Counted from the stretch's first letter, positions 1 through 21,823 are shown. The stretch: 64,000 nucleotides of DNA from Patescibacteria group bacterium (GCA_038065075.1 JBBTRQ010000001.1:2823-66822); one strand, 5' to 3'. Notes: generated by a model not told the origin, from the sequence alone. Translations and numbers: made by a program.

Positions 1-3000
1 GTTGAAATCTCCACACAGACCCGAGTCGCAGGACGTACTGCTCGTACACACGTCACTGGCATCCGAAGCGCTCGCGCAGACTCCGCTGGCGTTACACGCG
101 CCCGAGCCATACGACGGAGTGACAAAGTACGCATCACATTGCGTATCGACAATACAGGTCTCGCCCGCATCATCGAAATCCGTACAAATATCCCCTACAC
201 CGCAGGCCGCGCCACCGCCGCCGCAGGTTCCCGTGTCGCAATCTGCATCAGTCGTACAGATTGTTCCGTCCGAGCACAGCGCTCCCTCCCAATCTTCATA
301 ATCGCCATCACATTCCTCCGAGCCGTTCACGCGACCATCGCCGCAAATAAGTCCTGGGGATGTGCAATTATAGGCACAAGCATCCGTCGCGTTGTACTGG
401 CCATTGGAAACCGCGCACTCGGCGGCCAGATTGAGGTACGCCCAGCTTGCCGTGTCCGCGATCACACTCGAGTAGTTGGATGTCGTTCCGCAATCGCACT
501 GTTCACTGGAGGCCAAGTATCCGTCACCACAGTAGATGGCATCACCCGCGCCACACTCATCATCGCAATGACCGTAGGTTCCATTGAGCGAACCGTCGTC
601 GCAGGTCTCACCCGTTTCGACAACGCCGTTGCCACACTCATAGGCGCTGCATGATGATGTGTTGGTCGTATCCCAGTAACACTGATTCGACGAATTGATC
701 GCACAGGCGTACGTCGTTGTGCCGCTCGCACACGTTCCACCCGTTCCGCACTGGGCATCACTCTCGCACCCTTCATCGCCGTCATACGTATCGTCATCTG
801 GATTTACGCACACCGTACACGTTGCGCCGGTCGTAGTATCACCAAGTTCACAGGTTTCACTCGCTCCTTGTGTTCCGTCACCGCACAACGAGGAGTCTCC
901 CCATGTGCTTCCGTCACAGAATACCGGCGTGGCCGAGAATCCTGAAAGGGCGGAAGCCGGCGCATAGTCTGTCGGATACTCTACGTACACCGTCACCTCA
1001 TCGGAAAGCTCTGTATCAAGCGCGTAGCCCCATGTGTACTCGCCCCCGTCAGACTCGAGCACCGCGTACAGTTTGTATGCCTCCCCTCCCACGCTCTGGT
1101 ATCCATAGAGGTGCGAGTTCTCTGGACAGATAAACGACCCCTCTTCTCCGTTCCAGCAAGAAGCAGAGTCGTATCCGTCTTCCGAACAGTCATAAAACTC
1201 GTTCACCGGATCGCTCGGAAGCGCCGTGCCTAAGTCGTTCCCTAACGACGCACTCCAGGAACTCCAGATAGAGTTAGACAACGCGGGCACAAATGTTCCA
1301 GACTGCACCTCGGGGAATCCCGCCATGCACTCCTCCTCCCCTGGACAATTATAATCTGTATCACAGGACTGTCCCTTTGTGACCGAGCAGTGACCGTTGG
1401 CGTCGCCATACTCGTCAATCGTCGTCGCTATATCGACCACGTCCAAGAGACGCGTCATGTCACGCGTGAGCTTTCCCTTCTGGGCGTCACACATGATCGA
1501 GCTGTCCTCGAATGCCTCATAGCAATCCCCATCCCACTCGCATGTCACGTATTCTCCCGAGGTGTCATCATCACTCTCGTAATACAGTTCATAACTCAAC
1601 GTCGTTTCATCCTGGCACAAGTTGATATCCGTCACCTCGTCCGTGTTGCCGTTGAAGCGCCAGTTCGCGAGAAGCTGATTAAAAATTTCCTGCGCGTCAT
1701 CGCTGGCGTCCTCGTTGTAAGAGACGATGTAGATGTTGGGATAGATGGTTGTCCCACTCACATTCGCGGCCGCGGCATACAGCGTGTTGCCGGCTGAGAC
1801 GGCTGGATATCCGTCGAGTTCTGTTTCCGAAAAGGTGCCGGTAAACTCCTGTCCCTCAACCCAGGCACTGGGAGTTAAATACGATCCATTTCCTAAACAC
1901 GATTCGCCTGATGGACAATCTGAGTCGGCGCTACAAGAGGTGGAAGTTGTCGTCGAACAGAAGGAAACGTTGGGGATGACGCGTACACCGATCGCATCAC
2001 TGGAATCTTCCACTTTAAAAATGAGTTCCTGAAGAATGCCAGAAGATGCGAGAGATGTGACATCGATCGGATCCTCGAGTGCTGGCAGGTCATCCTCGGT
2101 TCCTGTCTCACCGGCATCGCGGCAGTAATAGAATGAAAAGTTACTCGGCAAAACATCTTCCAGATACGGGAAATCAAGCGTCGTCGATTCAAGCGACGGC
2201 CACGGGTTCTCACAAACGAGGGCGGTCACCTCGAGGAGCCCCGTGACGGTGCGCGCGGCGATCGCGGGGATGGCGGCGCTCGTGGCAGTCGCGGGGATCG
2301 CGGCAACGGCGACGGTTGTCGGTTCAAAGAGTTCATCAGTCGTGATGGTCGCGGTCGCAAAGACTTGCTCTCGGCCGGAGGCACCGCTTGCGGTGTAATT
2401 GCGTGTCGTGTCCTGCGGCGTCTCAGGCGCGGAGGCGACCACGTCTGTTTCTCCCGCGTCCGTCAACGAGGATGCCCACCCCCACTCCCACGCGTAGAGC
2501 TCTGGCAACGGCGCGATCTCTTCATACCCTCCCGCGCGGTAACTCTGGGGGGTGGCGATGAAGGCGTGCTCCTCGCCGGTTGCGCTAAACAGCCCCACGC
2601 TTGCACCCTCGTTGACGCTCACGTCAACATTCCCGAGATCCTCCAGGGTGACTCGATCCAGATCGCAAACCTCCGAACCCACGGCAAACGTGCGGACGAA
2701 TTGCGCGCTACCGCACGCGTCTCCCAGGCACAGGGTCACGTCCGAAGGCGTAAGCATGCCATCCTTATTTTCATCGTGGCCAACGTTGTCCGCGACGACC
2801 ACCAAGCGATAGACGGCGTTCTCCTCCAGAAGCTGGCCGTAGGCAAGTGCCACGCGCGCGGTTCCGGCTTGCGCGTCGACAATCGTCTGGGAATACGTCA
2901 CCGGCACATGGCAAGCAAACGTCGAGGAAGCCGACGCGTCGTTTCCAAACAGACCCATCACGAACCGCTTGAACCAATGCCATAGGCGCATGGCCGAACT

Positions 3001-6000
3001 GGACTCGGGCGGGAGCGCCGCGCCGACGTAGCCTGTGGGACAGTCGGTGATCTCGTCCACCGCTTCCTGCGCCCCGTCGCCGTTCCCGTCCACGCTCACC
3101 AAGTCCAAATAGAGATTCGCGTGAAATTCGTTTTGCTGGATGATGCCATCGCCGTCGGTGAGCTCGACCACGCCGTCCTGATCGTTGTCCTGCGTTGAGT
3201 CAAACGTGGCGGCGTCCATGAACTCGCTGAACTCCACCCAGACGGCCGTGTTACGGCACAAGCCGTTGGCCGTGTCTGTCTCAAACGCCGCGAGGTTGTC
3301 CGTCGGACTGACGGTTCCCAGCGTGGGGCGCGCAAAACAGCAAGACTCCGCGCCGCAACCCAGTGCGGCTCCGCCACAAGAGTCATTGGTGGTACAAGCG
3401 CATTGCAGGCGCAGCGTGGCATCGTCGGTCACGTCTTCGTCGACCGTGACGGATATGGTGGAGACCGCGTAGCCGGTTGTCTCGTTGACTTCCCTGGGAG
3501 CGCCCGGCGCCACTTGGGCGACGGAATACGAGCCCGCAGAGAACACTGAGGAAGCGGGCGCGTCACATTCCTCGCCCACGCCTTGTGCGTTGCCGTCTCC
3601 GCAAAAGGACGGAATCGAGTATAGGTAGGAGGAGCCCGACCACAAACAGCGGTTGCCACAGCCTTCCTCCCCGTCGCACTCCTCGCCCAGATCAAGGTCA
3701 GTGTTGCCGCAACAGTTGGGCGACGCGGAAGTGGGGCACGAGGGCGTTCCCTCCCACAGGCAGGAGCTTGAACAACCGTCAGGCGCCACGAGCGTGGAAG
3801 AAGCCAGCGCCGTGGGAATGGGATCGCAATCCTCTCCCGGCTCAACGACCTGGTTGCCGCAGATGGCGTAGACGTTCTCTTCCGACTCCGACCCTTCCAA
3901 CAGACATCGGTTCGAACAGCCGTCGCCGGAAATCGCGTTGCCGTCGTCGCAGTCCTCGCCGCCGGTATTGCTCGCCCAGTCACGCGGGCCCGCGTCCCCG
4001 CACGTCGCCCCCACCAAGAGCGATCCTTCGTTCTTGCAGATGGAAGAACAGCCGTCGCCGCTGGCGAGATTTCCGTCGTCGCAGTCCTCGCCGCCGGTCT
4101 CGATCGTCCACTGGCGAATCCCGTCCCCGCAGCAGCCGATTCCCGTCAGTTCGCACGTGTCGCCCACCGCGTAGGTACAATCCGAATCCTGACCGTTGCA
4201 AGAGTCGCCCGTGATCGAACACGACCCAACGCAGGAAAGGGAGTCGCATTGGGTGAAGCTCCCGCAGGCCTCATCGGCATCGGCAAAATCTTCGCATTGA
4301 CCCGACGTCGAACAGGCTCCGCTGTCACATTCGCTGTCAAGCGCGCAGGCCTGGTTCACATCCGCGGCGGAAGCGCACACCGCTTCCGCGCAGACTTCCT
4401 CGCACGAGGCATCATTCACGCACGGCGCGTCGGATTCTTCGCAGGCCAAGGGGCATTGGGCATGCTCCTCAAACACGCCTTCATTCAAACAGTTCTGCGA
4501 ACAGCCGTCGCCTGGCAATGTGGCGCCGTCATCGCACTCCTCCGGCGCCTCCACGCTTCCGTTACCGCACACGCCGTCTTCCACGCTCACCGTCGAGCCG
4601 GCGTTGAGACAGGCCGCCGTGCAGTACGCCGGGAGCGTGCCGGCAAGCTCAATGGCGCCGCCCAAAATCATGTAGGCGACGACCTCGTCGTTATTGAGAG
4701 CCAAGCTGGCGGCCGCGCCAACGGCGTTGGGCGTATCCGTGGCCGTCCAGGCTTCCCATGCGTAATCGCCCGCCTGAAGCGTCTGGCCTTGTGCGGAACA
4801 CTCATCAGGCTCGCCCAAAGCCGTGGCCGCAAACTCGGCGCGCGCGCCGACATAGCCCAGGGTGGCAAGGGCGGGATCGATCTCCACCGAGTCAATCGAA
4901 CAGCTGACCGCATCGTTCTTGGTGCGGAAGATCCAAGAAAAGTCTCCGGGGAAGTACCGGTTCTCATCCGTGCCATAATTGGAGCCCGACTGTGCAAGCG
5001 CGATGCCCGTTTGGGAGACAACGGCGTCGCCGTCCACGACCACGCGGTACCACGTGTTGGGATCCATCGTCAGCGGGGGGGCAAACAGAATCGAGAACCG
5101 GCGCGTGGTCGCGCTATACCCGATGGCGCTCACTAAATCCACATCGTCAAGACCGGACGTCTCGCACAGCGAATTCAAACACTCGTACAGCGTGATACTG
5201 TTCTCCCCGATCGTGGCCTCGTCCATGACCGTGTTGAACTCGCCCCATGGCAAGGCGTTGACGCAGGCCGCGGTACACCGCGGGAAGTAATCGTCGATTT
5301 TCGGGTCGAGGAAATTGATCGTGAGATCGCCCGTGCCGGACGGATCGTTCACCGCGTTGGTGACCGTAGCGGTAATGAGAGCCGGATCGTTCGCGGGCGT
5401 CTCCGCTTGGGCGTTCACGACGTTCGCGCAGATCCCGATCCCGGGCGCGGACACGGGGATCAACGCGCCGTCAAAATCCGATTCCCAGTCAAGCGCGTAG
5501 CCGGCGCAGGAAAGCGCCACGCACCGGTCGTTTTGGGCGGTGAGCTGGGCGGAGTAGTCCACGTCCGCTTGTTGGGTCTGCGTGTACTCATTTGGCCGGA
5601 CGTTCACGTCCCCCACCTCGCAGGGAGTGTTCACGGCGCTGGTGGTAAAGTCCCATTCGTAATCCTCTTCCAAATAGCCGCCCGCGGCGCTCCGGATTTG
5701 ATCCGCGCCCTGCAGACTCACGCGGTACCAAGTGTCGGTTGCGAGGCTACCGACAATGGGCGTCCATGAAAACCCGGTCACGTCCGGGACGACGCTACCG
5801 GGCACCAAGACCCAATTTTTGCATGCGCCTTCTTGCGCGAGCAGACACGTTTCATCGGGATTCTCACAATCGAAATCGCTCGAGCACTCCGCGGCCGCGA
5901 ACGAACAGACTTCCAGCGCGCTCGTTTCCTCTGCGAGCGTGAAGGTCTGCGCGCACGCGCGCACCAACACGGTGGAAGCGTTCATGGTCGGTTTCACCAT

Positions 6001-8961
6001 CGTCATGTTGAACTCGGCCTCCACCGCGGCGTTCACGCATACGTCCTGCGGATCGCTCCACCCCTCCCAGGGGCTGGGTGAGACACCCGTTCCCGTGCAC
6101 TGGACGAGCACGTGCGGGGTGTTGGGTGTGATTCCCGTGGTGATCATGAAGGCGTAGTGGGCCTCAACCTCAGTCACGTCCTCACATGACGTCGAACACG
6201 CTCCGTTGGAACAACAGCTCTCTCCTTCGGCACACAAATCCGCATCCTCCCGACAGTCGCCGACGGTAAAGGTGATCGAATTGGAGGAGTATCCGTTTTC
6301 CGCTTCCTCAACGTACACAGGACCGGTCACGGCCTCGTCGGGCACGACAACGGAAGAAATCTCGTCATTCTCCCACAACGTGAAGCCGGCTTCTTGAATA
6401 CGATAAAACGTCACGGTTCCGTCGTCGGTTCCAAAATTTTCACCGTAAATTGTCACCTCAACTTCCGCCGGCGCGCTCGATGGATCAATGTCACAGATGG
6501 CCGGTCCCGGGGTGTCGTCCAAAACGACGAAATCTGTCGCGTCCGATTCCTGCCCGTCCGCGCGCTCAAGCGTGAGCGCGTGGGTTACGGCTTCGATCGC
6601 GTCCAAGCTTTCTGTTTGATAGACCTCCGGAACCTTCACGGTTACGTACGTGTCATGCCAGAAATCGTCCCCACACGCGTCCGGAAAATCGGTGTCGCCC
6701 AGGGCGGTATAGCCCAAGGACTCATTCTCAAAAAAGATTGATCCGGTTGTCGTTCCAAATCCTGTTCCGTACACGGTGATGTATTGTCCAGCTGGCCCCC
6801 AGTTCAGCGCGTCCTCACACGTCGCTCCCTCGCCACAGTCATCGTCATCGCCACAGTGCACATTGTCGTCGGAACACGCCTTCCAACCGGAATCGACCGA
6901 GGAGATGACTGGACTCGAGGAACTCGAAACATCGACTGCCGTGAACGTGACCTTATTTGATCCCACACGCACAGACTCGCAACTTCCGCCCTCGTCGCCA
7001 CAATCATCGTCGTCGCCGCAATACTTGAGCGTCTCGGAACACCACGACGTCGCGCAACTCTCACCTGTCTCGGTGTCACAATCCTCATCGTCTGAGCAGG
7101 TCGTCGCCGTTGCCTCGCCATCGGAGGTGATACAAACGTAGTCGCCTGTAAACACCTGCGTAAGATACGTTCCCGAGTTTACGTTGGGAACAACGACATC
7201 GAGTTGGTCGTCAGACCAAGAAATGTACGAGCTCGCTTCGTAGTTTGTAAAATAGAACGTCGACGAACCTTGGGTCTCGCCGAAACTGTTGCCGTACACA
7301 TCGATCGAAGAGCCGTAATCATCTTCATCAGGGTCAAGCAAACACACGCCCGGACGTTCAATCGCGTTGACATCGAAGTCTGCAATCGACGGGCCATAGT
7401 CGTCGTCGGTGCGCTCGGTCTCGTCGTCCGATGTTGTGACAGAAACAGGGCCATCCACGGCGGCGCTTGGAACCTGAACAATGATCTGCGAATCCGACCA
7501 CTGCGTGGAAGCGTTACATTCGTACGCACTCAGTTCAACTTCATCTCCCGATTCCGTTCCTAGGAACGCAATAACACCTTCGTCTTCTCCAAAGCCCTCA
7601 CCGGAAATCGTGATCAGATTTCCCCCAGCGCCGTCTCCTGGCGACACGCCTTCAATCTTCGGAGTCGTCACGCAGGAACCGTCCACACATTGGCCGCTGG
7701 CGCACTCCGCGTCTTCCGTACACTCATCGCCGTCACAGGAGCCGCAGTAGTACGCGCTCGTGGAGTCGCCACCGCAGTCGATTTCCTCCTCACCCAAATC
7801 TTCGTCGAGGACTTCGTTGTTACAGTTGGCGGCACGCAAAACGATGCTTACGCGGGAGGCGGTATCCGTATTCCCCGCGCAATCGTATCCGGTCGCCCAC
7901 ACGTCATATTCCTCGTTGGTGGTGTAGCCTTCCGTATCCCATTCTTCTGCCGAGTCGGTGAAAAATGCATTCTCGACGCTCGCGCCTGTCACGGCTCCCG
8001 TGGATGAGAAGTCTACTCCCGAGGAGTAGATCGCCTCGTCATCATCGATCACATAAAAATCGACGGTCGAAACACCACTGTCATCTGTCGTAAGTACCTG
8101 AAGCATTTCGATCGATCCCGCGTAGAGACTCTCCCCGTCTTCTGGCGCGTCCATCGTGACGCTTGGATCGTCGATATCGACCTCGGTCCCGGTTGTGAAA
8201 CCAAAGGTGCAGGGATAGGTCGTCGTGCACGTCAGGGATGAGCCGGCTGAGGACTCGACCACGCTCGAATCTACATCAATCGTGTACTCCGACGACGCAT
8301 CGAAACAAAACTCTGTCTCGTACGGGCTGTCACAGGCCTGGGATGGTGTGAATGTCACGGTGCGGCCGGACGTCGAAAACGTTCCGACCACGGGACTGCC
8401 ACCAGAGTCGGCAACCACGATTCCCTCCTCCACGCTGTCAGAATCGACACTCTTGGAAAAAACAAATTGAAGCTGGAGGTTTTGGAGAGACTCGGCACAT
8501 TCTGTATTGACTGAGCTCAGATAAAACACCGAACTGCTACTGCTATCCGAGTAGGAACTCGAGTTTGAACTGCTTCCAGAAATATCCGTCCCGGTCGCGT
8601 CCACGAGCGCCCCCAGCACAAACGACACAATGGCGAAGCTCGCAAACACCAACAGCAGACCGATGATGGCGTTTGTGATGATACCCTTGGCTTTCTTCAA
8701 CCGCTCTGGATTCCCTCCGGCGGTCATGTACACAAATCCTCCGTAAACCATGAACGCAACAGTCACGACTCCCACGAACGTAATGGCCGTGCGGATGAGT
8801 CGGGCAATAATGACCGTGATGGTGGCGTCGGTCGAAAACCCGGCCGTTTCCGCAAACGACTCCATGTCCACATCCTGTGCAAACGCCGGCACGGCGACAA
8901 AAACCCCGGCACTGAGGATCAGTGCAAGTAGGAAGCTGTGGATGTAACGATTCATCTTCAT
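1..8961 (-). CDS. giant secreted/cell-surface protein, 5' end complete and 3' end beyond window start (>=2987 aa in window); N-terminal signal peptide plus TrbC/VirB2-like (T4SS pilin-like) two-helix module, then Cys/Asp/Gly-rich adhesin-like region with myxo-type cysteine-rich repeats (CGDG..GEDCDDGN..SGDGCS..C), IPT/TIG-like repeats (xYGxxFG) and Ser/Thr-rich linkers
   Basis: Manual translation of the minus strand from ATG at 8959-8961 gives MKMNRYIHSFLLALILSAGVFVAVPAFAQD... Frame checked stop-free at several sampled places down to nt 1 (no TTA/CTA/TCA in + triplets starting at 3k+1). It is absent from the ORF track because it has no in-window stop. All other-frame ORFs in 1-8900 are short and are interpreted as spurious high-GC antisense/out-of-frame ORFs. 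Confidence 0.6.
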   Translation of the reverse strand, partial: MKMNRYIHSFLLALILSAGVFVAVPAFAQDVDMESFAETAGFSTDATITVIIARLIRTAITFVGVVTVAFMVYGGFVYMTAGGNPERLKKAKGIITNAIIGLLLVFASFAIVSFVLGALVDATGTDISGSSSNSSSYSDSSSSSVFYLSSVNTECAESLQNLQLQFVFSKSVDSDSVEEGIVVADSGGSPVVGTFSTSGRTVTFTPSQACDSPYETEFCFDASSEYTIDVDSSVVESSAGSSLTCTTTYPCTFGFTTGTEVDIDDPSVTMDAPEDGESLYAGSIEMLQVLTTDDSGVSTVDFYVIDDDEAIYSSGVDFSSTGAVTGASVENAFFTDSAEEWDTEGYTTNEEYDVWATGYDCAGNTDTASRVSIVLRAANCNNEVLDEDLGEEEIDCGGDSTSAYYCGSCDGDECTEDAECASGQCVDGSCVTTPKIEGVSPGDGAGGNLITISGEGFGEDEGVIAFLGTESGDEVELSAYECNASTQWSDSQIIVQVPSAAVDGPVSVTTSDDETERTDDDYGPSIADFDVNAIERPGVCLLDPDEDDYGSSIDVYGNSFGETQGSSTFYFTNYEASSYISWSDDQLDVVVPNVNSGTYLTQVFTGDYVCITSDGEATATTCSDDEDCDTETGESCATSWCSETLKYCGDDDDCGDEGGSCESVRVGSNKVTFTAVDVSSSSSPVISSVDSGWKACSDDNVHCGDDDDCGEGATCEDALNWGPAGQYITVYGTGFGTTTGSIFFENESLGYTALGDTDFPDACGDDFWHDTYVTVKVPEVYQTESLDAIEAVTHALTLERADGQESDATDFVVLDDTPGPAICDIDPSSAPAEVEVTIYGENFGTDDGTVTFYRIQEAGFTLWENDEISSVVVPDEAVTGPVYVEEAENGYSSNSITFTVGDCREDADLCAEGESCCSNGACSTSCEDVTEVEAHYAFMITTGITPNTPHVLVQCTGTGVSPSPWEGWSDPQDVCVNAAVEAEFNMTMVKPTMNASTVLVRACAQTFTLAEETSALEVCSFAAAECSSDFDCENPDETCLLAQEGACKNWVLVPGSVVPDVTGFSWTPIVGSLATDTWYRVSLQGADQIRSAAGGYLEEDYEWDFTTSAVNTPCEVGDVNVRPNEYTQTQQADVDYSAQLTAQNDRCVALSCAGYALDWESDFDGALIPVSAPGIGICANVVNAQAETPANDPALITATVTNAVNDPSGTGDLTINFLDPKIDDYFPRCTAACVNALPWGEFNTVMDEATIGENSITLYECLNSLCETSGLDDVDLVSAIGYSATTRRFSILFAPPLTMDPNTWYRVVVDGDAVVSQTGIALAQSGSNYGTDENRYFPGDFSWIFRTKNDAVSCSIDSVEIDPALATLGYVGARAEFAATALGEPDECSAQGQTLQAGDYAWEAWTATDTPNAVGAAASLALNNDEVVAYMILGGAIELAGTLPAYCTAACLNAGSTVSVEDGVCGNGSVEAPEECDDGATLPGDGCSQNCLNEGVFEEHAQCPLACEESDAPCVNDASCEEVCAEAVCASAADVNQACALDSECDSGACSTSGQCEDFADADEACGSFTQCDSLSCVGSCSITGDSCNGQDSDCTYAVGDTCELTGIGCCGDGIRQWTIETGGEDCDDGNLASGDGCSSICKNEGSLLVGATCGDAGPRDWASNTGGEDCDDGNAISGDGCSNRCLLEGSESEENVYAICGNQVVEPGEDCDPIPTALASSTLVAPDGCSSSCLWEGTPSCPTSASPNCCGNTDLDLGEECDGEEGCGNRCLWSGSSYLYSIPSFCGDGNAQGVGEECDAPASSVFSAGSYSVAQVAPGAPREVNETTGYAVSTISVTVDEDVTDDATLRLQCACTTNDSCGGAALGCGAESCCFARPTLGTVSPTDNLAAFETDTANGLCRNTAVWVEFSEFMDAATFDSTQDNDQDGVVELTDGDGIIQQNEFHANLYLDLVSVDGNGDGAQEAVDEITDCPTGYVGAALPPESSSAMRLWHWFKRFVMGLFGNDASASSTFACHVPVTYSQTIVDAQAGTARVALAYGQLLEENAVYRLVVVADNVGHDENKDGMLTPSDVTLCLGDACGSAQFVRTFAVGSEVCDLDRVTLEDLGNVDVSVNEGASVGLFSATGEEHAFIATPQSYRAGGYEEIAPLPELYAWEWGWASSLTDAGETDVVASAPETPQDTTRNYTASGASGREQVFATATITTDELFEPTTVAVAAIPATATSAAIPAIAARTVTGLLEVTALVCENPWPSLESTTLDFPYLEDVLPSNFSFYYCRDAGETGTEDDLPALEDPIDVTSLASSGILQELIFKVEDSSDAIGVRVIPNVSFCSTTTSTSCSADSDCPSGESCLGNGSYLTPSAWVEGQEFTGTFSETELDGYPAVSAGNTLYAAAANVSGTTIYPNIYIVSYNEDASDDAQEIFNQLLANWRFNGNTDEVTDINLCQDETTLSYELYYESDDDTSGEYVTCEWDGDCYEAFEDSSIMCDAQKGKLTRDMTRLLDVVDIATTIDEYGDANGHCSVTKGQSCDTDYNCPGEEECMAGFPEVQSGTFVPALSNSIWSSWSASLGNDLGTALPSDPVNEFYDCSEDGYDSASCWNGEEGSFICPENSHLYGYQSVGGEAYKLYAVLESDGGEYTWGYALDTELSDEVTVYVEYPTDYAPASALSGFSATPVFCDGSTWGDSSLCGDGTQGASETCELGDTTTGATCTVCVNPDDDTYDGDEGCESDAQCGTGGTCASGTTTYACAINSSNQCYWDTTNTSSCSAYECGNGVVETGETCDDGSLNGTYGHCDDECGAGDAIYCGDGYLASSEQCDCGTTSNYSSVIADTASWAYLNLAAECAVSNGQYNATDACAYNCTSPGLICGDGRVNGSEECDGDYEDWEGALCSDGTICTTDADCDTGTCGGGGAACGVGDICTDFDDAGETCIVDTQCDAYFVTPSYGSGACNASGVCASASDASDVCTSSTSCDSGLCGDFN

Positions 8962-8966
8962 GTTTT

Positions 8967-8994
8967 GGTAGCCGCAAGCTTTAGCTTGCGTGCG
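8967..8994. repeat. palindromic repeat family 2 copy (GGTAGCC-GCAAGC-TTTA-GCTTGC-GTGCG), intergenic between the two pilin-like genes
   Basis: Same architecture as copies at 13467-13524 and 24991-25018. Confidence 0.6.
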
Positions 8995-8996
8995 TT

Positions 8997-10904
8997 CTAC
9001 AGTTCCGTCTCCGTGTTATCTGGGAGCGTCTCATCTTCCGCCGCCGCTTCTTGTTCCTCTGTCTGACATGCGCTTGCGGAAGAAATCCCGTTACAGCAGT
9101 AAGGTTGGTCTTCGTCTCTTCCTTCCGTGCAGTTCGATCCCGGGCCGATCGCCGGGTACATGCAGATCTGGTACGCGCTCTTGATCCCCTCGCTCAAGAC
9201 CGGCCAGTAGTCCCAGCCGCCAAGGTCTGTACTTACGAGCGTCGGATGCTCGATCAGTACGGTCGTGCGCTCTTCCACATCGTCATTGGACTTGCGGATC
9301 GCGAACCAAAATTCGTAATACGGATCAGGCCACAGGGACACACTGCTCGTATTCACCGTCGAAGACTTCAGATAGCTGTTGAACGTGACCTCCACGTCGG
9401 CGCTGGTACTGATCTCATCCTCCTCTATCTCGGGGTCGAGACCACCCGTAATAATCTGCGGCACGGTGTCTTCAATCTCGTCGTTGGTCGTGAAGCTCCA
9501 CTCGTAATTATCGTTGTCGCCAGCATCTTCACACTCGATGGTGTCTGACTCAGATCCACAAATGGTTCCCGCGACTTCCGGATCATAATCATTGTCGCCA
9601 TCCAGCGAATTGGCGGCCGCGTCCACGACTCCATCAAACGTGTATCCCGTTGGCTCTGCTTGAGGAATCTCTTCCTCGTTCAATGTTGCCGCTTTGGCCA
9701 TGGCCGAGATGAGCTGGTTGGTCGGGAGACAGTAAATGGTGTCCCCACACGGGTCTTCTCCACACGCGTCGGTCGTCGTGAAACTGATCGTGCGATACGC
9801 ATTGCTGATCTCAAACGTGCCTTCAACGTTGGCGAGTGCCGCATCGAGAACTTCAATGTTCGTGAATAGAGGCTCCTCGCCGATGATGTAGGAACCTGTA
9901 GTCGCAACTGGATCCATGGCCTCGCTGAAATTGATCTCGACGGTCACGTTGCGTGGCTCGTCCGCATCCGCCGCCGGAACAATGCTGGTCACATACGGTG
10001 GTGTCAGGTCGATTTCTGTAGAAACTTCAAACGTCCAGGAGTACCCACTCGCGTACGCACCGGAAAACGCGGCCGTGCCAGATGCCCGCTCAATGTCGGT
10101 TGTGAGCGACACGGTGTAATTTGTGTCTTGTTCGGATGAGCCGAGATACTCGACGGGATCAAAGACGAAAATCTCAAAGCCCTCATCGTGGGTCACGACC
10201 ACCTCATCGGAGGCAAGAGCCGATCCCGGACCCTCATCCGTTGGATAGATAACAACGGAATCGGTATTGAGATCCGTGGAGTCAGGATCCTCATCGTATC
10301 CGGAAATCATGGACGCAGGATTGATCGCCTCCTTGAACGTCACGAAGATTCTGGTGTTGCGAGGGATCTCGGTAGCGTCACGCTCGGGATAGTGGTCGTC
10401 GAGAATACCGCCGCCCAGTGAACCGGAAAGCGGCTCCGAATACGCGTCGGCCACGGCGGCGGACGAGCCGGTGAATGCCGCGTCCAACAGACGGTTCAAA
10501 ATGAACGTGGCGATCGAATAGGCGGAAAAAATGATAATGAGGCCGATGATGGACTGCTGGAAAATCTTCTTAGCTTTCTTGATCGGCTCTGGTTCCCCAC
10601 GAGCCAGCAAGTAGAGAAACCCCGCATAGATGATGACGCAGACAAAGATGATGCCGACCAAGGTCAGAGCCACGCGAATGACGCGCGCGATGATGATGGC
10701 GATCGAATCTTGTGAAAGGGTAGAGGCGTCCGCAAACTGTTCGAAGGAGGTGTCTTGCGCGAGGGCAGGAAACGCCACCGCGAAGAATCCAACAACGCAA
10801 AACGCCACGATCAAAACAATGAGCGCGCGTGCAAAAGGTCTAAATGGGTGCGCGAGAGGTCGATGCATGTTGGGACGCCTGCGCGTGCCTCTATTGTATC
10901 GCAT
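8997..10904 (-). CDS. secreted surface protein, 635 aa: signal peptide (..AFPALAQD) plus TrbC/VirB2-like pilin module paralogous to the giant gene N-terminus, followed by bacterial Ig-like/Big-type extracellular domains and an acidic C-terminus
   Basis: ORF track. The N-terminal 150 aa align motif by motif with the giant gene N-terminus (..IIAR.IR.A.T.VG....V..Y.GF.Y...G.PE..KKAK.I....IIGL...F). Possible alternative start at Met13. Confidence 0.6.
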   Translation of the reverse strand: MRYNRGTRRRPNMHRPLAHPFRPFARALIVLIVAFCVVGFFAVAFPALAQDTSFEQFADASTLSQDSIAIIIARVIRVALTLVGIIFVCVIIYAGFLYLLARGEPEPIKKAKKIFQQSIIGLIIIFSAYSIATFILNRLLDAAFTGSSAAVADAYSEPLSGSLGGGILDDHYPERDATEIPRNTRIFVTFKEAINPASMISGYDEDPDSTDLNTDSVVIYPTDEGPGSALASDEVVVTHDEGFEIFVFDPVEYLGSSEQDTNYTVSLTTDIERASGTAAFSGAYASGYSWTFEVSTEIDLTPPYVTSIVPAADADEPRNVTVEINFSEAMDPVATTGSYIIGEEPLFTNIEVLDAALANVEGTFEISNAYRTISFTTTDACGEDPCGDTIYCLPTNQLISAMAKAATLNEEEIPQAEPTGYTFDGVVDAAANSLDGDNDYDPEVAGTICGSESDTIECEDAGDNDNYEWSFTTNDEIEDTVPQIITGGLDPEIEEDEISTSADVEVTFNSYLKSSTVNTSSVSLWPDPYYEFWFAIRKSNDDVEERTTVLIEHPTLVSTDLGGWDYWPVLSEGIKSAYQICMYPAIGPGSNCTEGRDEDQPYCCNGISSASACQTEEQEAAAEDETLPDNTETEL

Positions 10905-10981
10905 TTCTCTTCAATGGTCGCTCAAAATATGTGGACAAAACAAAAAGAGCGAGCCTTGCGCCCGCTCTTTCTCTTGAATGA

Positions 10982-11734
10982 TTATCCGATCTCCTGCAGA
11001 ACAAGCGTGCTGATGCCAAAGAGGCCGGCAACGATCAGGGTGGCGAAGATGCCGTACGTCATCTTGGTGAGGGCGTCCGTATGCAAGTCATCGCGATTGG
11101 AGGCGATCATGTAAGCAAACCCGCCTTGTAGGATCAACGTAATCGCCGCAACGCCCAGCCAAAGCATAAGCACACGAACGATCCTCAACATAAACTCCGC
11201 GTAGGCAGGACCGCTTGAAAATGTCTCGATAAGCGGAACCGCGGCAAGAGCCTCGTGCGAGAAACTCAGTCCTACAACCACGAGCACGAACCCAGCCAAG
11301 AGCGATCCCACAATGTCCTTCACGCGAGATCCATCCGCGCGCCCGGCGACGGCGGCCATGGCCGCTCCCATCACCTTGCCCATATCGGCCTTGCTGGTCG
11401 CGCCGCTTTTTTCCACGACCTCCTTCACGATCCGCGCAAGCTCTTCGTCGCTCATCTGAGTGGGAAGATACTGTTCCAAGACGCCGATCTCCACCTGGAC
11501 ACTCACAGCCAAATCTTCTCTCCCGCCAGCCTTAAAGGACTCAATGGAATCCTTGAGCTGTTTGACCTGCGTCTTCACCACGTCCTGGACTTCCGCGTCC
11601 GAGAGTTCGTGTTGCACGTCGATCTTTTTATTCTTCATGGCAGAAAGCAACAAACGCAACGTGGAAAGCGTTGCGCTGTCTTTGGCTTTCATGGCAGCCT
11701 TCATGTTTTCTGTAATCTTCTCTGCCAGGGACAT
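10982..11734 (-). CDS. yqeY: GatB/YqeY-domain protein (aa 1-150, full-length match to YqeY) fused to a C-terminal TM segment plus TrbC/VirB2-like pilin module (aa 150-250)
   Basis: N-terminal half matches the YqeY consensus through ..SKADMGKVMGA...G.ADG; the C-terminal 100 aa match the paralogous pilin module (..RIVRVLMLWLGVAAITLILQGGFAYMIASNRDD..YGIFATLIVAGLF). Conserved rpsU-yqeY gene order. Confidence 0.65.
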   Translation of the reverse strand: MSLAEKITENMKAAMKAKDSATLSTLRLLLSAMKNKKIDVQHELSDAEVQDVVKTQVKQLKDSIESFKAGGREDLAVSVQVEIGVLEQYLPTQMSDEELARIVKEVVEKSGATSKADMGKVMGAAMAAVAGRADGSRVKDIVGSLLAGFVLVVVGLSFSHEALAAVPLIETFSSGPAYAEFMLRIVRVLMLWLGVAAITLILQGGFAYMIASNRDDLHTDALTKMTYGIFATLIVAGLFGISTLVLQEIG

Positions 11735-11743: not shown

Positions 11744-11992
11744 TTAACGACGAGGGCCGCCCTGTGGACGTACAGTCTCTTCAAGCTGACCCACGCGAAT
11801 GAGATACTCGCGTCGGGCTCGGGCGACGATACGTCGCAGAGCGCTCTTTTTGACCTTCGTCTTATTAGGCTCCTCTACACGGAAACGTGTCTTCCTTACT
11901 TGAAGCATGCTTCCGCTTTGTTGGACGCGTCGAGAGAAGCGTCGGTAGAGGCTTTCAAAACTCTCGCCTTTTTTACGTTTAACGTTCACCAC
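11744..11992 (-). CDS. rpsU: 30S ribosomal protein S21
   Basis: 82 aa, basic, ..ESLYRRFSRRVQQSG...ARRE.. bS21-like. Confidence 0.75.
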   Translation of the reverse strand: MVNVKRKKGESFESLYRRFSRRVQQSGSMLQVRKTRFRVEEPNKTKVKKSALRRIVARARREYLIRVGQLEETVRPQGGPRR

Positions 11993-12022: not shown

Positions 12023-13456
12023 TTAAGCGATTGGATTTTGCGGAATGTTAGGGATTTTGTCAAGTTCTTCGTGCAGAAGCTTGCGCTTTACCAATCCCAC
12101 CACCTTTTTGACATCGACAATTTCCTGAGCCCCTGATTCCATGTCTCGAATGATGATGGTCCCATCAAGCACCTCTTTTTGACCCAAGATGAGGGTGAGT
12201 TCGACACCCATCTTGTTGGCAGCCTCGAGTTGGCCTTTCAGGGCATTCTTTCCAAACGCCTCCGCAACGGGTATGCCAGACTGGCGAAACTCCTCAAACA
12301 GTTTAAGGCCTACGCGTCGTGACGCATCCCCGAGCTGGGCGAAAAACACTTTTGCTGGTGGACGCTCCGGGGGGTTGATCCCCTTTGCTTCAAGCGCGCG
12401 AGCGATGCGCTCGATCCCCAGAGCAAACCCACAGGCGGGCGTAGGTCGGCCGCCAAGAAGTTCAACCAGACCGTCATATCGTCCACCCCCGCCCAAGGCA
12501 CTTTGTGAAAAATCTCCCACGTCTTCTTGAAGCGTGTACTCAAATACGGTGTGCGTGTAGTAGTCGAGTCCGCGAACGAGGTAAGGGTTAAGCTGATAAG
12601 GCACTTCAACCTCTTCGAGGAATTCCAAGACTTTCATGAAGTGTTCCTTACTCTTCTCGTCGAGCCAATCCAGAATCTGCGGCGCGCCCTGCAAGAGTTC
12701 GCGTGTCACTTCTTCTTTACTATCTAGGATGCGCAGAGGGTTCTTCTGCAAGCGACGTTTGTCGTCCTCGGAAAGTTTACTGCGATGTTGACGGAAGTAG
12801 GCCACCAGCTCGGTCAAGTACGCCACACGGCACTCAGACGTACCAATCGAGTTGATCTCGACCTTCACGTCCAGTCCAAGCTGTTTAAAAATCTGGTACC
12901 CGATGACGATAAGCTGGGCGTCCACAATAGACTCGTCCACGCCAAAGCTCTCAAATCCCGCCTGATAAAACTGACGATAGCGTCCAGCTTGCGGGCGATC
13001 GTGACGGAACATGGGTCCTAAGTACCACATCTTTACCGGCTGAGGACGATCGAGCATCCCGTGGCTGATGTAGGCACGCGCGGCACTGGCCGTCGCTTCG
13101 GGACGCAAAGCCACGGAGCGGTTTGAAGGATCGGTAAACACATACATCTCTTTCTCGACGATATCAGTCCCTTTCCCGATCGTGCGCTGGAACAAATCCG
13201 AGCGCTCCAGAATCGGAAGATCGATACGGTCAAAACTGTAGGACTCAGCAATGGACCGAATGGTGTCGCGCACTAAATTCCATCTTCCCTGCTCCTCTGG
13301 AAGGATGTCTCGAAATCCGCGTAAAAGCTCAAACGTCTTCCCGGATTTTCCTTCGCCTTCCTCCTCAACGCCCTCTTTCTTTGGCTCCTCCTTTGGTGGC
13401 GTCATTTTTTTCGAGGCTATCTCCTTTGCTGGAGCTTTTGATTTTTTCGGGAACAT
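12023..13456 (-). CDS. hisS: histidine--tRNA ligase with Lys/Glu-rich N-terminal extension
   Basis: Class II HisRS motifs (FELLRGFRDILPEE, GGGRYDGLVELLGG, CGFALGIERI). Confidence 0.9.
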   Translation of the reverse strand: MFPKKSKAPAKEIASKKMTPPKEEPKKEGVEEEGEGKSGKTFELLRGFRDILPEEQGRWNLVRDTIRSIAESYSFDRIDLPILERSDLFQRTIGKGTDIVEKEMYVFTDPSNRSVALRPEATASAARAYISHGMLDRPQPVKMWYLGPMFRHDRPQAGRYRQFYQAGFESFGVDESIVDAQLIVIGYQIFKQLGLDVKVEINSIGTSECRVAYLTELVAYFRQHRSKLSEDDKRRLQKNPLRILDSKEEVTRELLQGAPQILDWLDEKSKEHFMKVLEFLEEVEVPYQLNPYLVRGLDYYTHTVFEYTLQEDVGDFSQSALGGGGRYDGLVELLGGRPTPACGFALGIERIARALEAKGINPPERPPAKVFFAQLGDASRRVGLKLFEEFRQSGIPVAEAFGKNALKGQLEAANKMGVELTLILGQKEVLDGTIIIRDMESGAQEIVDVKKVVGLVKRKLLHEELDKIPNIPQNPIA

Positions 13457-13552: not shown

Positions 13553-14158
13553 CTACAAATTATAACTGGGAAGATCGAACGTGCCGATGCGAGAGAACGG
13601 AAGGCCGCGAACCCAGACGCGTCCGATGACGTCATCGCGGGTGATGGCGCCGAAACTGCGGGAGTCCAGGCTGGAGTCGCGGTTGTCACCAAACATGTAG
13701 TACTCATTATCCCCGAGGGTCACCCGAACCTTGCCGGTCGTCGACTCCTCTAGGTATGCCTCTTCGAGCACCAAACCGTTTGGATGCTCTGTGTTATAGA
13801 CCATGACGTTCCCGCCGGTCACTTCTATCGTCTCGCCAGGGAGTCCCACCACACGCTTGATGAAATACTGGCTGCGATCGCGTGGATATTTGAAGACGAC
13901 GATCTCTCCACGAAATGGATTACGGAAACGATAGGTGAGCTCGTCGATGATGAGATACTCTTGATCGTAGAAATTTGGTTCCATGCTTGCCCCTTTAACG
14001 TAGAACGGCTGGATGAGGAAGTATCGGATGGGAATGATGATGGCGCTGGAGATGATCACGATCTGGACGATCTCGAACAAAAAGGACAGCACAGCGCCCC
14101 CCACAGGCCCAAACCGATCGTAGAGTTTATCTTCAAAAGCCGAAAAACGTGAGGACAT
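13553..14158 (-). CDS. lepB: signal peptidase I
   Basis: S26 motifs GASMEPNF, YFIKRVVGLPGE, GDNRDSSLDSR. Confidence 0.85.
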   Translation of the reverse strand: MSSRFSAFEDKLYDRFGPVGGAVLSFLFEIVQIVIISSAIIIPIRYFLIQPFYVKGASMEPNFYDQEYLIIDELTYRFRNPFRGEIVVFKYPRDRSQYFIKRVVGLPGETIEVTGGNVMVYNTEHPNGLVLEEAYLEESTTGKVRVTLGDNEYYMFGDNRDSSLDSRSFGAITRDDVIGRVWVRGLPFSRIGTFDLPSYNL

Positions 14159-14255: not shown

Positions 14256-14570
14256 CTATTTATTTATCCACTCAAGCATTCGATTGAGTGCCGACTTGGG
14301 AGCCAGTTGCAAATACCCTTGCGGAAGATTATAGCCAGGTACTGTGTAACCTGGTGGTGATGTATAGCCGCCCGGGGTGGTGTATCCAGGTGTTCCATAA
14401 CCGGGAACGAGGCTTCCACCAAACAAACTTCCACCTGAGCGGTTCTTGAGTGAAACAGCTCCCGCGGCTGCCGCGGCCGCTAAGACAACCACCAGACCAA
14501 CGGCTACGGCCGTCCGTGTCGAACTAGTTACCTGCGTCTTCGTCATAGATATCAAATGAAGTGAATTCAT
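14256..14570 (-). CDS. small secreted/membrane protein with PGY/TPGG tyrosine-glycine-proline repeats
   Basis: ORF track; N-terminal hydrophobic segment plus GYTTPGGYTSPPGYTVPGYNLPQGY low-complexity. Overlaps the start of the upstream gene, so start uncertain. Confidence 0.35.
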   Translation of the reverse strand: MNSLHLISMTKTQVTSSTRTAVAVGLVVVLAAAAAAGAVSLKNRSGGSLFGGSLVPGYGTPGYTTPGGYTSPPGYTVPGYNLPQGYLQLAPKSALNRMLEWINK

Positions 14571-16614
14571 AAATGGTCATGCCCTCCTGATTCAATAGAC
14601 GATCAGCTCCTTCCTCCAGCTCCGCAAGAAGCTCCGGCGTCCACGCCCAATAGGCTGGCGCGGCAAAGTAGATGCGACGAACACCTGTCTCTTGAGCCAT
14701 TCGCAAGTAGGCTTCCTGAGAGGGCCCTTCATAGATCGTCGAGGTGTAGAGCCCGTAGAGTGATCCCCCTGTAGGGATAGCATACCAGAGAATCTCTTGA
14801 CCTTCATACCGATAGGTGTGGGCAAAACCAAACTCCTGAATAGCCGCCGCGCTCATGAGTTGGTGAGAAAGCACCAGATAAGGTTCGCCCTGACTCGCTT
14901 CCTCAATCAAATGGACTCCTTCGACATCGACAGCACTAACACCTGGAGAGAAGAACGGATACTTCAGGTTGTACTGCGGATAGGAAAAAAACCAAACGAC
15001 CACGACCAGAAGCGCCAGGAGAAACACCCTCCCAAACTCGAATCGGTGCAGACGTGCGAACACAACGACAAGGGGTGGAAGTGCAAACGTATAAAGAGCC
15101 TGCAGGAGACGAAGAGCGAACTCGAGCTGTTCATGCTGGATGATCCCTTCAAACGTGAACAGCGTCGACGCTCCCCAAATCGTCAGGAGGAGTCCAAGGG
15201 AAAACGTCAGGTGCCCTCGTGCGTTCGCGCGAACCGACGTACATGCGCATACAACGACCAACGATGTGAGGAACACCACGATGGGCAACCAATATCGGAA
15301 GTCATACAGGAAATCGAGTGCCCAGGGAATATACGGATACGGACCCCAGTAGGGACTCGCGAACAATCGGAAGAAGTCTGGAAGTTTTGTGACGAGCAGA
15401 CGGAGGCTACCACCGAGGTTCGTGTGCGATGCAATGGCTAGCATCGCGGGAACGGTGAGACCGACGAGCAGGACAGCGGCGGCGATGAACGCTATCCTCG
15501 CCAAAAAACTCTGCCGACCGACCACGAGGCGCTCGAAGAACAAAAAGACGAGAAGCGGCACAGCCAAGAGCGGATGGAACAGGACAGCGGCGACGAGTGC
15601 GAGCATGACCGACGCAAAACAAACTCGTGGTGCGCGAGCAACCCACGGATATGCCACCATAAAACCCAGGAATAGAACATACGTGACCGTGAACGGAACG
15701 GTGAATGTCGCCAGCATGAAGGGAATCGCAAGGATCCCGATCCACCACATGCGGGCCTGGCGTCGTGTAAGTCCCCACCCATGCTCGAACCCAAGGGTAG
15801 CCATGATTGGCAACCAAAGGCTCTCCACAACCGGCACGAGCCAGATGTCGATGAGCTTCACACTCAAGCCAGTCAGATGATGCAACGCGGCGACGATGAC
15901 GTACTGGCCGCTGTAGAGGAGTCGAACGGGCTCGACGACTCCTGTCTGCACGAGTGCCTCCTCAGCCGCGCGGTGCAGGAAGGGATCAAAGCCAAAGCCG
16001 ATGGCATACACGATCGCGGAAACGCTCAATGCGCTGAATGTCACAAACATCCATCCAATGAGCGGAACATCATCATCCCGCTCGCGTGCCGCAAGGATAG
16101 CCGAAACGATCGCGACGAACAGCAGAACAAAAGGCTCAGGACCAAACAGATTCCACGGGCTCACCAGAGGGATGTCTGTGCGCGCCAAGACCATGAGGCT
16201 AATGAGTAGCAGGCTTGCCAGAAGGCTGATGGCGCTGAAGAGCCAGGGTTGATTGCGTTCAATGCTCGGACACGGAAAAAAGCACATAACCCGACCTGAC
16301 CCCACGAGCAAACATCCGATGGTCACGAGCCAGAGGGTGAGCAGAATCATCCTCTCGTCCAAACGACCAACCGAGAGGTAAAGCCCGACCAAAAAAATCG
16401 TCGAGGTACCAAACACGGCCAGGGAACCAACAACAAGGCGCTCCCAAACATCCCTCCCAAAAACGGCCACGCGGCCAATCAAGACGACAACGCAACCAAA
16501 AAAGAGGAGGCTTCCAACCACCCCTATCCACCACATTCCAACACCCACGTTCATGCTCAAAATCACGCTGGCAACCAAAAGCACGATCCGTGGAGGATCC
16601 CAACGCATACTCAC
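14524..16614 (-). CDS. polytopic membrane protein (>=14 TM helices) with C-terminal extracytoplasmic domain; function unknown (glycosyltransferase-C-like topology)
   Basis: ORF track, hydrophobicity pattern. Confidence 0.5.
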   Translation of the reverse strand: MSMRWDPPRIVLLVASVILSMNVGVGMWWIGVVGSLLFFGCVVVLIGRVAVFGRDVWERLVVGSLAVFGTSTIFLVGLYLSVGRLDERMILLTLWLVTIGCLLVGSGRVMCFFPCPSIERNQPWLFSAISLLASLLLISLMVLARTDIPLVSPWNLFGPEPFVLLFVAIVSAILAARERDDDVPLIGWMFVTFSALSVSAIVYAIGFGFDPFLHRAAEEALVQTGVVEPVRLLYSGQYVIVAALHHLTGLSVKLIDIWLVPVVESLWLPIMATLGFEHGWGLTRRQARMWWIGILAIPFMLATFTVPFTVTYVLFLGFMVAYPWVARAPRVCFASVMLALVAAVLFHPLLAVPLLVFLFFERLVVGRQSFLARIAFIAAAVLLVGLTVPAMLAIASHTNLGGSLRLLVTKLPDFFRLFASPYWGPYPYIPWALDFLYDFRYWLPIVVFLTSLVVVCACTSVRANARGHLTFSLGLLLTIWGASTLFTFEGIIQHEQLEFALRLLQALYTFALPPLVVVFARLHRFEFGRVFLLALLVVVVWFFSYPQYNLKYPFFSPGVSAVDVEGVHLIEEASQGEPYLVLSHQLMSAAAIQEFGFAHTYRYEGQEILWYAIPTGGSLYGLYTSTIYEGPSQEAYLRMAQETGVRRIYFAAPAYWAWTPELLAELEEGADRLLNQEGMTIYEFTSFDIYDEDAGN

Positions 16615-17570: not shown

Positions 17571-17575
17571 ATGAA

Positions 17576-20269: not shown

Positions 20270-20318
20270 AGGATAAAATCAGTATATCAAAAATCCCCAA
20301 GACTAGCTTGGAGATTTT

Positions 20319-20395
20319 TGGTGGGCGTGAGAGGGCTCGAACCTCTGACCTCTGTCGTGTGAGGACAGCGCTCTAACCAACTGAGCTACACGCCC
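20319..20395 (-). tRNA. tRNA-Val (anticodon CAC), CCA encoded
   Basis: Cloverleaf folded by eye from the reverse complement GGGCGTGTAGCTCAGTTGGTTAGAGCGCTGTCCTCACACGACAGAGGTCAGAGGTTCGAGCCCTCTCACGCCCACCA. Confidence 0.85.
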
Positions 20396-20402
20396 GTGAG
20401 GT

Positions 20403-20427
20403 CGAGCGACAGAGTAACACGGTGTGC
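20403..20427 (-). promoter_or_regulatory. conserved 25-nt block 7 nt upstream of tRNA-Val, identical to the block at 24213-24237
   Basis: cgagcgacagagtaacacggtgtgc present at the same spacing upstream of both tRNA-Val genes. Confidence 0.4.
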
Positions 20428-20470
20428 GCCCCCAGTCCTTGAAGTTTCCGGATGATCTGATAAGCTCCGG

Positions 20471-21797: not shown

Positions 21798-21823
21798 GAT
21801 AAAAAAAGACGCTCAAGTGAGCG

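Follow-up and report, generated by a model that had tools for sequence, protein, structure and literature searches.

How Patescibacteria (the Candidate Phyla Radiation, CPR) attach to their hosts is largely mysterious, and VirB2-like pilins are essential in the sole genetically tractable species of the group. A 64,000-nt stretch of DNA from an uncultured, ultra-small Patescibacteria group bacterium (Candidatus Uhrbacteria; GCA_038065075.1, JBBTRQ010000001.1:2823-66822; this whole stretch is called the window below) raises the question of what a pilin-like module does when it is not a small protein of its own. At the left end of the window, three consecutive minus-strand genes each carry one copy, and in two of them the copy forms the N-terminal part of a very large, conserved, adhesin-like protein encoded outside a type IV secretion system (T4SS) cluster. 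These are the gene of a giant surface protein, of which the 5' part (2987 of 3592 codons) occupies 1..8961, gene 2 (8997..10904, 635 aa) and gene 3 (10982..11734, 250 aa), which encodes a YqeY domain followed by a divergent copy. We argue that the giant and the gene 2 product are, on balance, probably surface adhesins that are exported by the Sec pathway, processed by signal peptidase and held in the membrane by a VirB2-like hairpin. The preliminary description had seen here an adhesin system triplicated in tandem; two copies do bear passengers, but the third has none and lies beyond a terminator-like hairpin, and the locus is an adhesin pair plus a separate YqeY fusion.

As the preliminary description had proposed, the left 9 kb of the window form one minus-strand open reading frame (ORF) that runs off the window edge, which is why it is missing from the ORF list. 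Translation of 1-8961 gives 2987 codons with zero stops, starting with MKMNRYIHSF... (N-terminus MKMNRYIHSFLLALILSAGVFVAVPAFAQD), and the frame is also a single gene in an identical public contig. Indeed, 20,753 nt of the window are identical to CAYHTY010000001.1 (GCA_964359885.1, a Patescibacteria metagenome-assembled genome (MAG), 'Patescibacteria group bacterium'), where the gene is called as a 3592-aa protein with Pfam matches to T4SS_pilin, Big_5, TIG and VWA. Given the length of this call, about 605 C-terminal codons, the VWA domain among them, fall outside the window on its left; the C-terminal features reported here are drawn from the public call and from one orthologue. An exact 60-mer of the giant was not found in the GTDB representative genomes, and the identical 3592-aa protein was not returned among the homologue matches, which number 107, come from Uhrbacteria and are mostly 3100-3800 aa long. 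In one assembly (L003) the giant gene is in pieces; since hisS, lepB and an AAA gene are split there too, we read this as assembly indels and not as pseudogenisation.

The giant starts with a predicted Sec signal peptide (aa 1-28, 8878..8961, minus strand like all features of the three genes), recognised from the sequence, the alignment and an AlphaFold2 (AF2) model. Signal peptidase I would cut it at A-F-A|Q (residues 26-29); A28 is invariant in an alignment of 39 diverse module sequences taken from the giant and gene 2 orthologue families, where the consensus reads P-x-x-A-Q. The VirB2-like pilin module follows (aa 29-124, 8590..8877) and consists, according to hidden Markov model (HMM), AF2 and hydropathy analyses, of an acidic N-terminal stretch, a first helix (48-79), a basic loop, GGNPERLKKAKG, and a second helix (85-124). 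In the AF2 model of the N-terminus, a signal helix (3-22) and a short helix (33-39) precede the two-helix hairpin that had been anticipated. The strongly hydrophobic segments of the giant, as judged from hydropathy, are confined to this N-terminal region (signal peptide, helix 1 and helix 2). Apart from these, a less hydrophobic stretch of 19 residues at aa 2217-2235 narrowly exceeds the hydropathy threshold (1.72 against 1.6).

The three copies share a paralogous pattern, as had been noticed before. The giant (aa 1-130) and gene 2 (aa 1-150) are 42-44% identical (E 1e-26 to 4e-34), and the last 111 aa of gene 3 align with the giant at 28% identity over 75 aa (E 1.3e-7, blastp with composition-based statistics) and with gene 2 at E 1.5e-6 (blastp); overall, the gene 3 tail shares 22-28% identity with the other two modules. 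Family comparison with hhalign, using alignments of about 100 orthologues per module, gives E 7e-49 for the giant versus gene 2, E 2.6e-15 for the giant versus the gene 3 tail (probability 98.5%, 91 columns) and E 1e-14 for gene 2 versus the gene 3 tail. Common to the modules are the motifs (I/L)R..R, G(I/V), (Y/Q)GGF.YM.A and A.(K/T). When the module HMM was run against 686 stop-to-stop ORFs of the window, it found these three copies and no fourth.

The assignment of the module to the TrbC/VirB2 pilins, also made in the preliminary description, holds in part. Against PF18895 (T4SS_pilin, 'Type IV secretion system pilin'; gathering cut-off 26.6 bits), the giant scores 30.8 bits as a whole fragment and 36.3-36.4 bits with its N-terminus alone (match at aa 47-115, nt 8617-8823), and gene 2 scores 35.5 bits (aa 65-135, 10500..10712), both above the cut-off. 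Against PF04956 (TrbC/VirB2; cut-off 27.9 bits), by contrast, gene 2 remains below the cut-off (23.4 bits, E 7e-5, aa 30-135) and the giant has no match at E<=1. The 39 module sequences behave likewise: all 39 match PF18895, 6/39 match PF04956 at E<=0.01 (best 2.1e-6) and 1/39 matches CagC. Gene 3 has no PF18895 match at E<=1 as a whole protein and no Pfam pilin match at E<=10 as an isolated tail, and none of its 120 listed orthologues has a precomputed PF18895 hit; as judged from blastp and profile-profile comparison, its tail is a divergent paralogue of the pilin module. A PDB sequence-profile search with the module alignment returned no matches, and a fold search with the module matched thousands of structures, as a generic helical hairpin does.

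The giant and gene 2 modules also align with residues 7-79 of the 80-residue NF045849 model (25 bits, cut-off 40, E 1e-5), the 'Mbov_0395 family pilin-like conjugal transfer protein' of Mycoplasma integrative and conjugative elements. Nearly the whole model is thus aligned and belongs to the conjugation system of a monoderm, but the Mycoplasma protein is small, stands alone in its element and has no passenger, and the score is below cut-off. The similarity is consistent with the published MPF-FATA (mating-pair formation class) ancestry of the patescibacterial T4SS. The order of elements typical of pilins, a leader peptide and then a pair of hydrophobic helices with a short basic loop between them, is present (hydropathy, AF2), and three consecutive VirB2-like genes of low mutual identity make an array, for which two adjacent ones suffice. 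Size departs from the pilin type: after predicted cleavage the mature giant would have about 3560 aa, the gene 2 product about 585 aa and the gene 3 tail 86 aa, and only the last falls within the small-protein range of about 70-120 aa. What is shared with the TrbC/VirB2/TraA pilins of diderm T4SSs is therefore the long signal-peptidase-I leader, the hydrophobic helices, the short basic loop and, in gene 2, the sub-threshold HMM similarity; what differs is the monoderm host, the lack of adjacent VirB3/VirB4 genes and mature proteins far larger than those of the classical pilins.

Behind its hairpin, the giant carries the kinds of passenger domain that the preliminary description had listed (myxo-type, TIG and Ig-like), as Pfam and NCBIfam matches show. 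A bacterial Ig-like Big_5 domain (aa 162-257, 8191..8478) and a Big_7 domain (aa 266-308, 8038-8166) precede the best of three TIG matches, at aa 434-511 (7429-7662). There are also myxo-type cysteine-rich acidic repeats matching DUF4215 in Pfam and TIGR02232 (myxo_disulf_rpt, three matched stretches) in NCBIfam, the best-scoring at aa 1464-1497 (4471..4572). Additional CG[DN]G...CD.G motifs are found from aa 1611, 2776 and 2811 onwards, and 3901-4020 encodes ...CGDAGPRDWASNTGGEDCDDGNAISGDGCSNRC, exactly as it had been read. The passenger has a pI of 4.05, with 17.6% D+E against 2.2% K+R, and contains 163 Cys. In the orthologue from one relative (P0127, L008), the VWA domain has the DxSxS motif of a metal ion-dependent adhesion site (MIDAS), and the C-terminus (...NLTYCPYE) contains neither an LPXTG sorting signal nor a transmembrane segment.

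Gene 2 combines the pilin module with an Ig-like array, as seen from its translation, Pfam matches and homologues. Of the latter there are 332, and the 120 listed are mostly 600-650 aa long and nearly all carry PF18895 and Big_5; the public call starts at M13 (nt 10868) and gives 623 aa, which is why the protein read from the longest start in the window has no exact counterpart on record. Its long leader or signal peptide (aa 1-49, 10758..10904) ends in A-L-A|Q, with A49 and Q50 near-invariant across 61 orthologues (sequence and orthologue alignment). In the full-length AF2 model (pLDDT 80.8, pTM 0.73), a disordered linker (143-162) connects the helices to a confidently predicted beta-rich region (165-630), which corresponds to a passenger (aa ~165-630, 9015..10410) of tandem Ig-like domains (Big_5 x3) with conserved cysteines according to Pfam, alignment and AF2. 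The passengers of both proteins are probably calcium-binding as well as acidic and disulfide-rich. Note that the 35-nt gap between the gene 2 stop and the giant start (8962-8996, minus strand) contains a hairpin with a perfect 7-bp stem and no T run, CGCAAGC-TAAA-GCTTGCG, which may act as an mRNA stability or attenuation element setting the ratio of the gene 2 and giant products.

Gene 3 is of a different make: Pfam and its orthologues define a YqeY domain (aa 5-146), a transmembrane leader and a divergent pilin-like hairpin. This is the usual form, since 101 of the 120 listed representatives measure 244-258 aa (at least 120 cluster representatives exist, of 137-288 aa, mostly around 250 aa with near-full coverage). 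The last YqeY helix continues directly into a hydrophobic leader (aa 136-164, 11243-11329), then A-L-A|A-V-P, and the tail (aa 165-250, 10985..11242), identified by blastp, hhalign and the conserved motif LR..RVL.LW.GI.AI..IL.GGF.YM.AS.RD, follows directly after the predicted A-L-A|A site. Mean identity among orthologues is 41% for the tail against 64.5% for the YqeY domain. Because the hydrophobic segment is followed by such a site, signal peptidase could release the 86-aa hairpin. An independent precursor could likewise begin at M126, an in-frame ATG with GGGAG before it, although the arrangement has no evidential weight because the YqeY coding frame constrains that sequence. In two more distant lineages YqeY is plain (150-152 aa) and the third module is missing, so that the fusion is younger than the gene 2/giant pair. 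Finally, a terminator-like hairpin of 13 pairs with a T run lies between the gene 3 stop and the gene 2 start (10942..10972, minus strand); gene 3 therefore closes the block of genes upstream of it, lepB-hisS-rpsU-yqeY, and gene 2 makes up a separate unit with the giant.

The preliminary description placed the cluster next to lepB, which is near but not adjacent: hisS (histidyl-tRNA synthetase, 12023..13456, Pfam, a conserved neighbour) and an 82-aa bS21-like small ORF immediately upstream of the YqeY gene (11744..11992; an orthologue has a weak PF01165 match) lie in between. The lepB gene (13553..14158; all three minus strand) encodes a signal peptidase I (Peptidase_S26, Pfam), is the first gene of the co-directional block, with the same synteny at L007, L008, L009 and a JGI locus, and its product is a candidate processing enzyme for the surface proteins. 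The closest homologues of the giant, gene 2 and gene 3 are from Candidatus Uhrbacteria, which belong to GTDB class ABY1 (Table S1, PMC12102498), and their conserved gene order is lepB - hisS - (bS21-like) - yqeY - (0-4 inserted genes) - gene 2 - giant. At all loci examined, including that of a relative at 33% identity, the last two genes of this series are direct neighbours. Beyond the giant, the relatives have two TSP3_bac proteins and a protein of about 350 aa, then ybeY - dgkA - ftsA, and in two closer relatives ftsA is followed by ftsZ - nrdR - htrA - pyk.

The three proteins directly downstream of the giant are conserved and span the membrane once (L008 20534-23132, L007 19423-21972); they were seen in relatives, and the corresponding position lies left of the window. 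Two match Pfam TSP3_bac, extracellular thrombospondin-type-3 calcium-binding (DxDxDG) repeats, and the third, of about 350 aa, has no Pfam match and contains DSDSDG / DTDADG-type motifs. At L008 the first of the three genes starts 3 nt past the stop of the giant. The three are likely partners of the giant and gene 2 in one surface complex.

The T4SS machinery that the preliminary description had suggested looking for was not found near the modules. No VirB4, VirB6, VirB3 or VirD4/coupling protein occurs in 43 Pfam-scanned reading frames of the window, namely the three module genes and every non-overlapped ORF of at least 283 aa, a set that leaves out about 18 non-overlapped ORFs of 150-279 aa; what the scan recovered were housekeeping genes (tRNA synthetases, EngA, Pth, DprA, TopA, RelA/SpoT, ParAB, ABC transporters and others). 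The +/-10 kb flanks of three relatives likewise contain no T4SS genes. Elsewhere in the genomes the picture is mixed: VirB4 is listed for 4/6 of the Uhrbacteria assemblies holding gene 2/giant orthologues and not for the other 2/6 (one of them 1.12 Mb), with VirB4 status taken from Table S1 of PMC12102498, assembly names from our homologue lists, and MAG incompleteness limiting the comparison.

The module itself is far more widespread than the locus. A module profile searched against 1.84 billion cluster representatives had 80,272 matches at E<=1e-3, 27,671 at E<=1e-10 and 969 at E<=1e-30. Among the best 150, a ranking that favours the query's own relatives and multi-module proteins (the latter because module scores add up), 51 have a single N-terminal module with at least 400 aa behind it (in proteins of up to 4654 aa), 82 hold two or more modules per polypeptide (up to 12 at domain E<=1e-3, or 17 stretches by another count) and 9 consist of the module alone. 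Three of these 9, the ones that we checked (P0379, P0395, P0417), are giants cut at contig ends, and we dropped the argument that stand-alone small pilins score as high as the fused modules. The architecture is widespread in public sequence data; it is undescribed in the literature that we searched, and the family itself is known.

Tandem modules within one polypeptide are seen, for example, in P0348, P0354, P0393 and P0355; one such protein has 552 aa with six copies and a signal peptide on the first copy only. Such multi-module proteins occur within arrays of 5-6 pilin genes (L012 1759-5308, L013 194-3941). We considered whether they are polyproteins processed by signal peptidase and rejected this as a general rule: the linkers between modules have a median length of 17 aa, and A.AQ is found in 4% of 171 of them (0.8% in shuffles), A-H-A-Q standing between modules in P0355 and P0357. 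They resemble polytopic membrane proteins more than polyproteins that undergo processing and, because the linkers mostly lack cleavage motifs, the hairpin seems to be a membrane-embedded unit in them.

Homology, domain content, the pattern of hydrophobic segments, the distribution of charge and conservation with synteny are what we observed; from these we infer orientation in the membrane (read from hydrophobicity and charge), processing, membrane retention and adhesive function, as follows. Signal peptidase I would remove the N-terminal Sec signal peptide (A-x-A|Q) from the gene 2 product (about 620 aa) and the giant (about 3590 aa). The mature N-terminal region would then consist of an acidic segment outside the cell, helix 1, a short basic cytoplasmic loop and helix 2, and the hairpin would be retained in the cytoplasmic membrane. 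The positive-inside rule puts the loop in the cytoplasm and both hairpin ends outside, as is accepted for VirB2-type propilins, and the C-terminal passenger would be outside too because it directly follows helix 2. The passenger would act as a long adhesin that binds a host cell or a surface. The third copy is a hairpin without a passenger, which in most Uhrbacteria has become the C-terminal part of YqeY, a housekeeping protein of the cytoplasm; the hydrophobic segment upstream of it and the A-L-A site suggest that it can be cut off as a short free hairpin. The absence of nearby T4SS genes, the two assemblies listed without VirB4 and the concatenated hairpins of other proteins make us favour such a membrane-embedded role.

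Several points weigh against membrane-anchored adhesins. Four of the six orthologue-bearing assemblies do encode VirB4 elsewhere. A122 of the giant, a small residue just after helix 2, is near-invariant in the 39-sequence alignment, so that the passenger might be released by cleavage and not stay anchored. The likeness of the gene 2 passenger to S-layer proteins also fits a structural role in the envelope, and a fold search with so generic a hairpin discriminates neither for nor against a pilin fold.

The strongest alternative, which we regard as possible though rather unlikely, is that the two proteins are adhesins carried on a pilus: their hairpins would co-polymerise with short VirB2-like pilins through a T4SS encoded elsewhere. 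Placed at the tip, or built into the pilus only here and there, the bulky proteins would present the adhesin some way off the cell, and the processed YqeY tail is a possible shaft subunit. The membership of the modules in the T4SS_pilin family speaks for it, as do the one short and two long forms at the locus, the closely related modules in tandem pilin gene arrays and the VirB4 of the four assemblies. In VirB2-type pili both termini face outward, a topology that allows a C-terminal passenger. Type IV pili offer a similar case in their initiator minor pilins, which bear extra domains. Against this stand the lack of VirB4, VirB6, VirB3 and coupling-protein genes in the scanned frames and flanks, the two assemblies without detectable VirB4 and the length of the giant, as a 3500-aa passenger is impossible on every subunit of a packed helical pilus; moreover, to our knowledge no pilus of PF18895-type pilins has been observed in any Patescibacterium. 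The essential VirB2-like pilin arrays of S. epibionticum, which lie within its T4SS cluster, again favour pili (Wang et al. 2023, PMC10633639). The two explanations are compatible with each other, since a pilin is a membrane resident until it is assembled. A specific and less probable form of the pilus explanation unites all three genes in one filament, with a shaft polymerised from the short hairpin that signal peptidase frees from YqeY, gene 2 as the adaptor and the giant as the adhesive tip of a VirB2-like pilus that seizes host cells. If true, this would mean a conjugative-type pilus in an ultra-small monoderm, its shaft subunit translationally tied to the lepB-hisS-rpsU-yqeY operon.

It is distinctly unlikely, in our view, that gene 2 and the giant form instead an S-layer-like or cell-wall-associated coat, tethered by the hairpins and tied to envelope growth and division. 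In Foldseek the gene 2 passenger matches LdtMt2, through its BIg domains, and two S-layer proteins, SbsC and Sap (E 2e-9 to 5e-5 overall, 1e-8 to 5e-5 for SbsC or Sap), the housekeeping and division neighbourhood (ybeY, dgkA, ftsA, ftsZ) is conserved, and the proteins are universal and of near-constant length in Uhrbacteria. The matches, however, are to generic Ig-like domains with TM-scores of 0.12-0.15 (low values are expected for a multi-domain rod), Pfam scans of the giant and gene 2 found no SLH or similar cell-wall-binding domain, and VWA/MIDAS, TIG and cysteine-rich repeats together typify adhesins that bind ligands. Likeness to SbsC and Sap is restricted to the Ig-like arrays. Least probable is a cleavable export leader, in which a second signal-peptidase cut after helix 2 would yield a soluble passenger and a free short pilin from a two-product polyprotein: the in-to-out orientation of helix 2, like that of a signal peptide, the small residue after it (A122; V-D-A|T in the giant) and the A-H-A-Q of P0355 and P0357 are in its favour, but A.AQ is as rare in linkers as stated above, and the conserved ...L-x-x-A-T-G lies inside the modelled helix (AF2).

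Membrane-anchored adhesins with a pilin-like hairpin can be set beside several known systems. The nearest, of the same Pfam family and phylum, are the VirB2-like arrays of Patescibacteria (PF18895; S. epibionticum ML1 SEML1_0006-0019), in which divergent copies with a Sec signal peptide and a two-helix hairpin likewise lie side by side. Here, by contrast, passengers of about 490 and 3470 aa follow two of the copies, the third is behind YqeY and invisible to Pfam, and the locus lies in a housekeeping block and not near virB4. Giant adhesins (RTX, LPXTG MSCRAMMs) are similar in length, acidity, tandem Ig/TIG domains and a terminal ligand-binding VWA domain; the difference is that an N-terminal pilin-like hairpin replaces the C-terminal LPXTG/sortase signal, the type I secretion retention module or the autotransporter barrel. 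Type IV minor or initiator pilins and VirB5 tip adhesins may be regarded as analogous, the idea of a pilin-type module joined to a bulky binding domain being the same; type IV pilins, however, are an unrelated superfamily (class III signal peptide, prepilin peptidase), and VirB5 is a separate non-pilin protein.

The preliminary description took the system to be uncharacterised, which holds for its function; the family and its tandem pilin arrays had already been published (PMC12102498, PMC10633639). Quinonero-Coronel et al. (2025, PMC12102498), who screened 3,035 Patescibacteria genomes for PF04956 and PF18895, reported 1,948 assemblies with VirB2-like pilins and 441 arrays of 2-11 genes in tandem or with one non-pilin gene between them, a mean identity of 25% and a maximum of 54%; no adhesins such as PrgB were detected in that survey. 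Its main text has no mention that we found of long fusion proteins, and the papers that we searched treat the arrays as small pilins. We found no fusions of a pilin module to giant adhesins or to YqeY in that literature, which mostly lies outside the subscription journals. A 2025 review describes a pilus in these monoderms as intriguing and unproven (PMC12857230). The present locus recasts a 'pilin' family as a general surface-anchoring or assembly module, and gene 2, the giant and the YqeY fusion are concrete candidates for attachment studies.

Further along the window, 14256-24205 probably represents one or two strain-specific islands integrated at tRNA-Val. LytR is directly beside lepB at L008 and L009, whereas about 10 kb separate them here. 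This insert encodes an unknown protein of 696 aa, an AAA/ClpB-like fragment of 319 aa and a PMP-repeat protein of 897 aa, besides unknown ORFs and the tRNA copies. A 114-nt unit, consisting of tRNA-Val(CAC) and about 37 nt, is present in three direct copies that lie at 20319-20432, 21738-21851 and 24129-24242 (100%, 72% and 85% identity) and bracket ORFs without Pfam matches. The 897-aa protein (17576-20269, minus strand), with Chlamydia-PMP repeats, a right-handed beta-helix and a weak AIDA-type adhesin match, is a second putative surface adhesin, unrelated to the pilin-module proteins. An Rfam group I catalytic intron (38078-38281, minus strand; 56.1 bits against a gathering score of 50) lies just downstream of tRNA-Leu and tRNA-Met genes (37678-37978). 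Two Asp/Lys/Asn-type class II tRNA-synthetase genes, each with tRNA-synt_2 and an OB anticodon-binding domain, are less than 3 kb apart (43289-44599 and 45895-47259, both minus strand).

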